The notes under the pieces were generated by a model, which saw only the letters and a list, made by a program, of their open reading frames with translations, was not told the DNA's origin and ran no database searches. The position numbers were made by a program, and so were the translations under genes. Of a stretch of DNA of 64,000 nt, positions 30,715-41,427 are shown piece by piece. Every line of letters starts with the position of its first letter. Within the stretch, counting starts at the first letter, position 1. Source of the DNA: Escherichia phage ECBP1; the sequence record NC_018854.1. One strand, 5' to 3'.

Positions 30715-33700
30715 TTAGTTAGTAAGGTTGAGCCAAGGGTTCAGGTTGTGGGCACGTAAGCCTTGACCGAAACCGAAGGAGTAACCGAGATTTCCCTGTG
30801 CAGCAATACTAAAGATGTTGTCCTGAATAGGCAGACCAACGTTACCAAACATGGTAGGGGTTGGAGCCAACATAGCCATAGCAGCATGGACTGGGTTATT
30901 ACGAATCATGGACACTGCAACTTTTGCAGAACGAATCTTAAAGTTATAGAACCACATCAGACCAACACTTTCCATATACCCACGGAATCGACCAGGCAGA
31001 CGGTCATAGTTAATGAACTCTTCCGTTACACGCCCCAGTGCTTCTTCACGAGTCTTACCTTTACGCTGAGTCAGTTCATCATAGATGATTGCTTTAGCAA
31101 TAAAGTCAGAGTACTCAACCGTCTTCTGAATACCCTGGAAGAGAGCAGTATCCTTAGTGATAAGTGCATAGCGACCTGCGTTACGAACAGACTTAGGCAG
31201 CTTATCAGCCAGCTTTTCCATGTATTCGTGGAGTTTACCTTCAGTAATCAGGATGTCATCACGACCAATACCAGCATCTGCAATTGAAGAGAACTCACCA
31301 GCTTCCAACAGAGGCCAGATACTCAAACGTTTATGGCTATCAGAGATGGACTGAATCTCAGCCTTGAGTTTACGAATCTGGTTCGGGTTAGTAGCTGCAC
31401 GTAATTCTGCTTCTGCATCTACCTGACGCAGACGAGATTTCAGGTACTGGTTAATCTCAGCAGTCTTCTGTGAAATGCTCTTAGCAATGTTCTTAACCGG
31501 TACACCACGAGCAACCATCTGATAAAGGTTAGCCAGGAAGTTAACAGCAGGTACGACTACTGACTTAACCACAATCAGAGTCTTAGCTTCTTTAACTAAG
31601 TTCTGAACCAGGTTCTCACCACCCATTACATACTTATAGGCACGGTTGCCAAAGACACCCAGCATAGCTTTCTTGAAGGTATCCAGTGTTTCTGGTGACC
31701 AACGGGAATTACCAGACCAGGCATCACCTACAGAAGCTGCACGATAACCCAGAGCATCGTTGAGCATGTCACGACGTACCCATAATTCACCCGGACCAAA
31801 CAAACTTTCTGCTTTCTGACGGGTTTCACTGTTCATCAGCTTAAGTGCATCGGCAGTTACTGGGTCCAGTTTAGAACCAAGAAGGTTAACGTACTGGGAC
31901 TTATTAGAAGCAGACATCTTAATGTCGTTCTCATACATGCTATGCAGGTTTTCAATCAGCATATCGTTGAATCGCTGAGCCTTAGCTTCTTCCACCTGAC
32001 GACCACGCCATACACCGATTGCACGAGCAAGATGGTTCTCACCTTCAATGTGCTTCAGCATGTTAGGGTCAATGGATTGCTCATAAGCAACCACATTACC
32101 ATTGGCATCATATACAGGCAGCAGTGGTTCATTACCACGTTCACCACGAGCCAGTGCTTTAGTGATACGGTCTACGGAAGGCTTGTCAGTGATACGACCA
32201 GCTACCATGGTTCCCATAGTAAAGCCCGTACCGAGATCTACACCACCAGCAGTATTACGAACGTTCTGTAAGATACCTTGCGAGAAAGGAGCCTGTGCCT
32301 GTACTGGTGCAAAGTAGTAGCTACGTGCTGGTCCACGATTAGCAGAGCTACCCTGATAAGTACCAAGACGTACATAGGATTTCTCAATCAAATCAGCAAA
32401 CTGACTATCTTCAGCAACAATCAGGTTAACACCCTGCTTGTTCTCGCTAGGGATATACCCTTTGTACTGGTTCAAGGTTGCACGACTATCAGACTTAGCT
32501 TTAGCCATTTCATCTTTACGCTGACCAACCAGATAAGAAGTAGCAAAGTCCATGCCTTCAATTTCTGTCTGAGCCAGTGAAGATAACATCTCACGGTCAG
32601 TCTTATTCATTGCTTCCAGTGCATACAAAGTAATCAGTTTATCCAACTGAGCTACATCTACAACAGAACGTGTAGTCTTACGTTCACCCAGTAAACGAGA
32701 AATTGCAGTAGCATTACGTAGCAGGTTGTTACCAACCGTACCTTTAATCATGTACTGAGCCAGTTGCTTAGATTTACGATTAATCAGAGGCCAGTTTCGT
32801 CCAGCTTGTTTCTGCAAATCTGCTTCCAGTTTATTAACCTCACGGTCAACAATCTTTTGGTCAGTCAGCAAGTCACGGATTTCATCCAGAGACATAGTGT
32901 CACGCAGAACAGCTAAGTCAGTTTTACCCATACCAGTATGCATTGCTTTCCACTCTTCATTAGTCAGCTTACGGCTGAACTTAGATGCGATAGTGGTAGG
33001 CAAGTGTTCACGGAACTGTTGACGGTCAGCCTGTACCTGTGCACGTACTGCCTTAATCAAATCATATACAGAAGCATTGCTCTTAGTACGTCCGATTATG
33101 TCATTAACCAGGTCATGGAAAGGTTGCCATACTTTACCCTGGTTCATTGCAGCCATAACACCTTCGGCTACGATTGCACCATTCTTCTCTGTAGCAATAG
33201 CAGCTACCAGTTGTGCAGCATGAACAGCACCTTTGACCAATGGATTCTTGGTATTAGCTGCAATTTCACGAGCACCTTCTAAAGCACGGGTAGACAATGC
33301 ATCAATAGAGTCCACCAAATACTGGTTAGCACGGTCGATAGCATTACCGGTAGGAGTAGCAACGGAATCATAGAAGGATTCTGCGTTAAGACTGGTCTGC
33401 ATGATTGTCTGAGCTAATGCATCCATACCTTCCTGTACGTTAGTGGCTTTAGTATCACCTGCTACACGAGCGTTCAGACTAGCCATTGCAGCAGTACCGA
33501 TGTTAGTCAGCATTGCATCAACAGTATTGCCGGATTTCTTATCTGCTTTCATGACAGGAATATCAGCCAGTACCTTACGTACCTCTTCACTTACCATTGC
33601 CAGACCAACAAAGGTAGGTAATAAGGAAGAGCGACCTTGAGCATCAAACTCAATGTTATTAGCACCCATGATGGTATCGAACTTCTGCTGTGCATAATAA

Positions 33701-41427: not shown

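Follow-up and report, generated by a model that had tools for sequence, protein, structure and literature searches.

The window analysed here, a stretch of 64,000 nucleotides (nt) of Escherichia phage ECBP1 (NC_018854.1), carries on its minus strand a 10.7-kb open reading frame (ORF) whose product is almost certainly the virion RNA polymerase (vRNAP) of an N4-like coliphage of the Gamaleyavirus type, the orthologue of gp50 of phage N4. This identification is correct and already known, and the gene is ordinary for its genus. Within the linker that joins the N-terminal domain (NTD) to the RNA polymerase (RNAP) domain, however, the protein contains a globular domain, here called module B, that N4 gp50 lacks. 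We tentatively propose, with confidence somewhat short of even, that the NTD-RNAP linker of Enquatrovirinae is a swappable cargo slot and that module B is an uncatalogued family with an unrecognised fold, which may act as a co-injected early effector through invariant D-H, R and Q residues and is shared with DarB-like giant proteins and a conjugative relaxase.

Identification of the virion RNA polymerase gene

The ORF as listed by the program runs uninterrupted over 30715..41445 of the minus strand from a TTG start. Its first ATG lies at 41427, and the Met encoded there aligns with residue 1 of N4 gp50, which gives a coding sequence of 30715..41427 and a product of 3570 amino acid residues (aa); the single unbroken minus-strand frame described in the original prediction was reproduced to the exact coordinates from this ATG. 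The second-longest ORF of the window comprises 884 aa. At the G+C content of the window (~44%), stops make up ~5.6% of random codons, and the calculated probability of 3570 stop-free codons by chance is ~e^-207, so the ORF is certainly real. A product of this size in the leftward late cluster fits the vRNAP family, whose members have about 3,400-3,750 aa.

A megablast search of the gene against 50,697 phage records matched 86 records, 57 of which cover at least 80% of the gene. The genes of PD38 and Bp4 (Gamaleyavirus Bp4), annotated as 'virion RNA polymerase', aligned in one piece over 100% of the length with 95.8% nucleotide identity. They have the same length (10,713 nt), neighbours and orientation and also contain module B, and they differ by only ~4% at the nucleotide level, as expected of a strain- or species-level relative. 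In a Pfam search, four N4-vRNAP-specific domains (PF21867, PF21624, PF21894, and PF21769) were found at aa 1412-2145 with E values of 5e-27 to 1.5e-100, and these subdomains (plug insertion, helical domain, vRNAP_dom, and vRNAP_dom_2) all scored far over the Pfam gathering cut-offs. The general phage-type Pfam RNA_pol family gave no match at E <=0.1. Solely N4-specific families were reported. Kinship to T7 RNAP lies at the level of fold and motifs. In sequence searches of the PDB, the full-length N4 vRNAP (9PNQ/9PNR/11GP) scored 5032 bits, and crystal structures of the mini-vRNAP (2PO4, 3C2P, and 3Q0A) scored ~1690 bits.

Global alignment with N4 gp50 (3500 aa) was collinear from residue 1 to the C-terminus with 67% aa identity; by domain, identity was 61%, 71%, 63%, and 71% for the NTD, RNAP, C1, and C2, respectively. 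All functional residues checked were identical to those of N4, namely W1214, R1508, K1521, D1643, R1750, K1754, Y1762, and D2035, W1214 being the counterpart of the hairpin-stacking Trp, N4 W129. The alignment with the N4 mini-vRNAP that had been called for accordingly covers the whole RNAP domain with the catalytic residues kept, and the T/DxxGR motif and motifs A, B, and C were located in the middle of the protein, all identical to those of the N4 mini-vRNAP. The original prediction of an N4-like vRNAP with a T7-like core is therefore supported by the identity to PD38/Bp4, the collinearity with N4 gp50, the matches to N4 structures, and the neighbouring homologues of the ejection protein genes gp51 and gp52.

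Size alone is no proof of function, and we considered whether the ORF could be a T7-like RNAP gene that has degenerated or is not packaged, or else an assembly fusion, instead of a functional injected vRNAP. No support for this was found. The frame is intact, every catalytic residue is conserved, independent isolates carry the same gene of 10,713 nt, the NTD and C-terminal domain (CTD) are collinear with N4 gp50, and the ejection operon is syntenic. In addition, the vRNAP of the related phage KP8 was detected in virions by matrix-assisted laser desorption/ionization time-of-flight (MALDI-TOF) mass spectrometry (PMC6950046). This explanation is effectively refuted, and nothing was found that argues against the identification as vRNAP.

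Domain organization

The protein consists, in this order, of the NTD, a low-complexity linker, a single-subunit T7-like RNAP core, a short linker, the C1 subdomain with an HExxH motif, and the C2 subdomain. The features, with module B at the end of the first linker, are as follows.

30715..41427, minus strand: vRNAP coding sequence (N4 gp50 orthologue), 3570 aa plus stop; from the ORF list, the translation, PD38/Bp4 identity, and full-length N4 gp50 PDB chains
38725..41427, minus strand: NTD, aa 1-901, Ala/Gly-rich with low-entropy stretches; 61% identity to the N4 NTD (aa 1-906)
38539..38724, minus strand: linker segment, aa 902-963, low-complexity and T/P/E/K/Q-rich, indel-prone among N4, G7C, E20, IME11, and Mimir124
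38119..38538, minus strand: module B, inserted globular domain, aa 964-1103; gap in the N4 alignment
34864..38118, minus strand: single-subunit RNAP domain, aa 1104-2188, equivalent to the N4 mini-vRNAP; 71% identity to N4 aa 1007-2101
36904..36918, minus strand: T/DxxGR motif TRVGR, aa 1504-1508; R1508 corresponds to N4 R424 (mini-vRNAP numbering)
36484..36513, minus strand: motif A, YVEADGVTNG; catalytic D1643 corresponds to N4 D559
36139..36180, minus strand: motif B, RGIAKNPLTITIYG; R1750, K1754, and Y1762 correspond to N4 R666, K670, and Y678
35308..35331, minus strand: motif C, IFDGMNIG; catalytic D2035 corresponds to N4 D951
34822..34863, minus strand: RNAP-CTD linker, aa 2189-2202, 8 aa shorter than N4 aa 2102-2123
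34090..34821, minus strand: C1 subdomain, aa 2203-2446; 63% identity to N4 C1
34504..34518, minus strand: zincin-type HExxH motif HELVH, aa 2304-2308, conserved with N4
30718..34089, minus strand: C2 subdomain, aa 2447-3570, free of low-entropy segments; 71% identity to N4 aa 2376-3500

The protein thus shares with N4 gp50 the domain order (NTD-linker-RNAP-C1 with HExxH-C2), the catalytic and promoter-contact residues that were checked, and the gp52-gp51-gp50 operon, whereas N4 gp50 has no module B and its NTD-RNAP linker consists of low-complexity sequence only. With T7-like single-subunit RNAPs it has in common the right-hand fold, established for the N4 mini-vRNAP, and the conserved T/DxxGR motif and motifs A, B, and C with two catalytic Asp residues; unlike them, the core is embedded in a 3570-aa protein of the ejected type, and its N4 counterpart has single-stranded hairpin promoters and a plug module.

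The extensions flanking the core had been described as Ala/Gln/Gly-rich, of low complexity, and poorly understood in function. In the N-terminal third, which is rich in Ala (A 15.8%, G 8.1%, and Q 6.9%), low-entropy stretches were found at aa 108-160, 260-299, 413-548, and 909-966, so the description of low complexity holds for parts of the N-terminal third and for the linker. It does not hold for the C-terminal third (aa 2191-3570), which has zero low-entropy segments and an ordinary composition (A 12.1% and L 8.7%). The statement on function is now only partly true, as structures of the full-length N4 vRNAP (2025) characterise the flanks in part (PMC12633501). In N4, the NTD inserts into membranes (nanodiscs); the NTD-RNAP linker (aa 907-1006) is a flexible, low-complexity segment of ~100 aa; and the RNAP-CTD linker is not visible in the cryo-electron microscopy (cryo-EM) maps (PMC12633501). 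The N4 counterpart of the CTD is folded and mostly helical, as solved by cryo-EM, with an HExxH-bearing C1 and a large helical C2, and it autoinhibits the polymerase allosterically (PMC12633501). The HExxH domain of C1 was placed in the MPTase superfamily by Iyer et al. 2017 (PMC5512222).

Putative mode of action and promoters

About four copies of N4 gp50, each made of three folded units on flexible linkers, are packaged and then expelled via the tail and a gp51/gp52 channel, and early genes are transcribed from single-stranded DNA-hairpin promoters (PMC12633501). By analogy, a few copies of the vRNAP described here would be packaged in the capsid and, at infection, would leave through the tail and the channel of gp51/gp52, strung out like 'beads on a string' on their flexible linkers. 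The NTD would associate with the membrane. At the left end of the genome, the RNAP core would recognise promoters in the form of DNA hairpins, extruded from the supercoiled phage DNA, and would transcribe the early genes without host RNAP. The CTD would be required for encapsidation and would damp polymerase activity. The virions of KP8 do contain vRNAP, as mentioned above.

Packaging, ejection, and promoter use are in this scheme all carried over from N4. When the window was searched for N4-type hairpin promoters with the pattern GAAGCNNNGCTTCTTTTGG, one match was obtained against 0.5 expected by chance, and a scan of the window for a 5-bp/3-nt hairpin followed by TGGA gave nothing like N4 P1 or P2. 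At its left edge the window takes in only the end of the homologue of gp15 (small subunit of RNAPII), followed by gp16 at 382..1599, and at its other edge (61521..64000) stands a block of small rightward ORFs (62184-63776), for which nucleotide comparison with the early regions at the left ends of G7C and N4 showed no similarity. From these two limits it follows that the early genes, the terminal repeat, and the vRNAP hairpin promoters lie outside the window, and we attribute the lack of a hairpin promoter to this position of the early region. In phage G7C, which belongs to the same genus, N4-type hairpins occur at nt 89, 796, and 1228, one of them, GTTGC-tcc-GCAAC-ttatgga, comparing with N4 P1, GTTGC-ttc-GCAAC-ttatgga.

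A globular domain in the NTD-RNAP linker

The alignment with N4 gp50 breaks at aa 977-1118 of the query, where ~140 aa of ordinary-complexity sequence (aa 964-1103) stand within the low-complexity linker. This segment has a G+C content of 39.6%, as against 44.8% for the remaining gene. A single-sequence AlphaFold2 model of it was poor (predicted local distance difference test score, pLDDT, of 52), and the model based on an alignment of 19 sequences, with a pLDDT of 90.1 and a predicted template modelling score (pTM) of 0.84, was used instead. The predicted fold is alpha/beta, with the order beta-hairpin, two helices, beta-hairpin, helix, strand, strand, and helix. In the same alignment, whose members are 25-60% identical, S987, P988, L990, G994, D1002, H1003, R1026, and Q1052 are invariant. 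Pairwise Nei-Gojobori comparisons of four Gamaleyaviruses gave ratios of nonsynonymous to synonymous substitution rates (dN/dS) of 0.03-0.12 at dS up to 0.55, indicating purifying selection.

Module B was detected by tblastn in 27 phage records, each time within the vRNAP gene and with at least 91% identity; the copy of PD38/Bp4 showed 98.5% aa identity. When the linker with its flanks was used as query, Mimir124, SP5M, PhAPEC7, PGN829.1, IME11, and others were found to have flanks that are 85-94% identical while ~120 aa are missing. A hidden Markov model (HMM) of module B matched the window, E20, and G7C (E about 1e-55) and gave no match in Mimir124, IME11, N4, Klebsiella phage JZBo1, or Pokken. 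The Stenotrophomonas phage Pokken had come up as a possible carrier (100% query coverage, 32% identity) and was rejected on this result. In a multiple alignment of the window, N4, G7C, E20, IME11, and Mimir124, the boundaries of the module were clean.

The vRNAP of G7C (3748 aa; HQ259105, 42931-45219, translated aa ~215-365) has, upstream of module B, an unrelated module of ~120-150 aa, here called module A (VPNGPEMKTAEF...NYVRNTF). Elsewhere among the phage records, module A was found only in the vRNAP of Shigella phage B2 (OM858838, 28193-28555, 75% identity), and it gave no match in Pfam or in a word-indexed protein search. In the searches, phage B2, which matched module A, was not among the module B matches. 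The vRNAPs of IME11 (3450 aa), Mimir124 (3443 aa), E20 (3604 aa), G7C, and Shigella phage B2 are orthologous and differ in linker content: the linkers of IME11, Mimir124, PhAPEC7, and PGN829.1 have no module, those of the window, Bp4, and E20 have module B, and that of G7C has A and B. Because the aligned phages show none, B, or A plus B, the linker can be regarded as an insertion slot, with A alone apparently a further state in phage B2 if judged by the search matches. Since phages of the same genus manage without module B, it is not needed for polymerase function.

An exhaustive phmmer search of 1.84 billion representative proteins yielded only 21 relatives of module B, nearly all inside very large proteins and at varying positions. 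One is a 3675-aa protein from a prophage late region with SLT, SNF2-type helicase, methyltransferase, and LPD39 domains. Its gene resembles the 'DarB-like antirestriction' genes of Serratia phage Parlo, and its module segment has 76.7% nucleotide identity to the Gamaleyavirus vRNAP over ~190 nt, a level that points to an exchange in the fairly recent past; no copy of this DarB-like giant, which carries the closest module B outside vRNAPs, was found in E. coli genomes. The relatives further include a 3253-aa methyltransferase/ddrB-ParB/LPD39 protein, giants bearing LPD22, LPD38, and InPase domains, a TrwC relaxase whose gene adjoins that of a type IV secretion system (T4SS) coupling protein, and a distant N4-like vRNAP (23-33% identical) with module B at the same position between NTD and RNAP. 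A solo module B of 166 aa is encoded on a phage-like metagenomic contig (ERZ23491061, scaffold_4375, 7294-7794), and it was the only protein returned by a word-indexed protein search with the module B profile. The solo gene stands between DNA_pol_B_exo2 and ParB_N/HTH_ParB genes, near a prokaryotic ubiquitin-like/E2/JAB/ThiF cluster.

Iyer et al. 2017 count N4-like vRNAPs among the polyvalent proteins, with ART, lysozyme, and PBECR as variable accessory domains (PMC5512222). The present vRNAP agrees with that class in being a giant multidomain protein co-delivered with DNA, an N4-like RNAP with an HExxH peptidase-like domain being an acknowledged type; the HExxH motif is present, and module B is common to SLT-, helicase-, methyltransferase-, LPD-, and relaxase-bearing giants. 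It differs in that module B is not among the reported vRNAP accessories and no Pfam LPD or PBECR model fits it. The Pfam polyvalent-peptidase model gave no match to the vRNAP at E <=0.1.

An origin of module B as an intein or homing element was also considered and rejected: no Cys/Ser...His-Asn splice-junction residues were found at the boundaries (TES|ERD and PLS|EME), and in unrelated proteins, too, the domain is permanently built into the reading frame. No mention of module B or of the linker polymorphism was found in the literature searched, the coverage of which was incomplete, so that it may have been noticed earlier.

Possible roles of module B

We put at about even the chances that module B has a function of its own and travels on the vRNAP chain as an accessory domain. 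The invariant residues and the residence only in proteins that enter cells together with DNA are why this reading is favoured; such a domain would be active early in the cell, by catalysis or by binding, in taking over the host or countering its defences. Several results limit this reading. Module B alone gave no match in Pfam or PHROG at E <=10. Its profile, run against PDB sequences, reached a best E of 0.011 for a flagellar M-ring fragment over 38 residues, which was judged spurious. Weak echoes recurred of Hjc and splicing-endonuclease folds, and just as much of gelsolin/ADF-H, none of them significant. Purifying selection, moreover, is expected of a purely structural role as well. A Pfam scan of the 19 family members produced only single-member noise matches, with no family found in more than one of the 19, and none of the PBECR1-5 and LPD Pfam models matched as the identity of module B.

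A structural role is the main alternative. Module B may be a 'bead' or spacer that tunes linker length or aids translocation or ejectosome assembly, for example by interacting with the envelope, and that has no separate cytoplasmic activity. It sits in the very linker that in N4 is a flexible tether of the beads-on-a-string chain, linker length varies among relatives, no catalytic family was matched, and some relatives have SLT domains, as ejection proteins that cross the envelope typically do. Against this, phages of the same genus infect E. coli without module B, the relatives include a conjugative relaxase and helicase/methylase giants acting in the cytoplasm, and the eight residues that remain invariant at such low identity include polar S, D, H, R, and Q, suggesting a specific site rather than a spacer. 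On balance we regard a purely structural module as rather unlikely, though it ranks second after an accessory effector. A more specific form of the effector hypothesis, in which module B would be a nuclease or RNase with an alpha/beta fold of the Hjc/splicing-endonuclease type and would process nucleic acid of the host or the phage during entry, appears improbable. Apart from the echoes mentioned, which extended to gelsolin/ADF-H, module B did not show the combination of significant structural similarity and catalytic motif that marks an Hjc, tRNA-splicing-endonuclease, or PD-(D/E)XK-like fold. All three roles are predictions from sequence comparison and modelling.

Operon structure and genomic surroundings

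The gp52-gp51-gp50 ejection operon is in place, the vRNAP gene being the last gene of a leftward late operon, and the gene order around it is the same as in PD38. In N4, gp52 is pore-forming and gp51 is an ejection protein (PMC12633501). The following features adjoin the gene.

43490..43933, minus strand: gp52 homologue, ejection protein, 147 aa from the ATG aligned to N4 M1; 60% identity, E 1e-48
41531..43477, minus strand: gp51 homologue, ejection protein, 648 aa, directly upstream in the same operon; 45% identity to N4 gp51, E 5e-177
41491..41514, minus strand: G+C-rich hairpin AAAGCCCC-ATCC-GGGGCTTT with a T-rich tract behind it, located in the 103 nt that separate the gp51 homologue from the vRNAP start; read by eye
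30685..30710, both strands: strong bidirectional intrinsic terminator hairpin with an 11-bp stem and a T-run on either strand, 5 nt beyond the stop codon of the vRNAP gene

The terminator at 30685..30710 marks the junction of the leftward late operon with rightward genes. The hairpin at 41491..41514 fell short of the T-run rule of the terminator scan. In the gp51 homologue, the stretch SPVGAFQINKATLEDYAPKV at aa ~295-365, which is kept in N4 gp51, looks by eye like a lytic-transglycosylase-type motif; it had no Pfam match at E <=0.01.

On the other side of the terminator, the ORF at 30162..30680 (plus strand), which is convergent on the vRNAP stop, encodes an N4 gp49 homologue with a Tad2-like (Thoeris anti-defence 2 / DUF2829) domain (E 1e-23), and the preceding ORF at 29677..30069 (plus strand) belongs to the N4 Gp49/Sf6 gene 66 family. 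A gene-poor region of 2.3 kb (27335..29677) separates the replication genes from the gp48/49 homologues. ARAGORN called three tRNAs there, Ala-CGC (28155-28226), Cys-ACA (28518-28596), and Ile-AAT (29299-29373), of which only Ile-AAT exceeded the Rfam gathering score (64.8 bits); the Ala-CGC and Cys-ACA calls may be degenerate. Near the right end of the window, a 9-bp G+C-rich hairpin at 62133..62175 (GGGGTAGAG...CTCTACCCC, then ATTTCTTTTT) lies just upstream of the ribosome-binding site and ATG of ORF 62184 and resembles an intrinsic terminator directly before the first of the small rightward ORFs.

Significance

The vRNAP is a hallmark gene of Schitoviridae and firmly assigns the window to an N4-like coliphage of the Gamaleyavirus type; this copy differs little from annotated ones and in itself adds nothing new. 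The added interest of the gene, which is modest, lies in an unannotated, variably present module of polyvalent proteins in its linker. Because it is compact, conserved, unannotated, and found only in proteins that travel with invading DNA, module B is a reasonable candidate for a new early-acting effector, and natural near-isogenic comparators without it exist in IME11, Mimir124, and PhAPEC7. Structural work on N4 has raised the question of how a 380-kDa chain threads a channel of ~35 Å, for which variants with one or two extra beads in the linker would be natural test cases.

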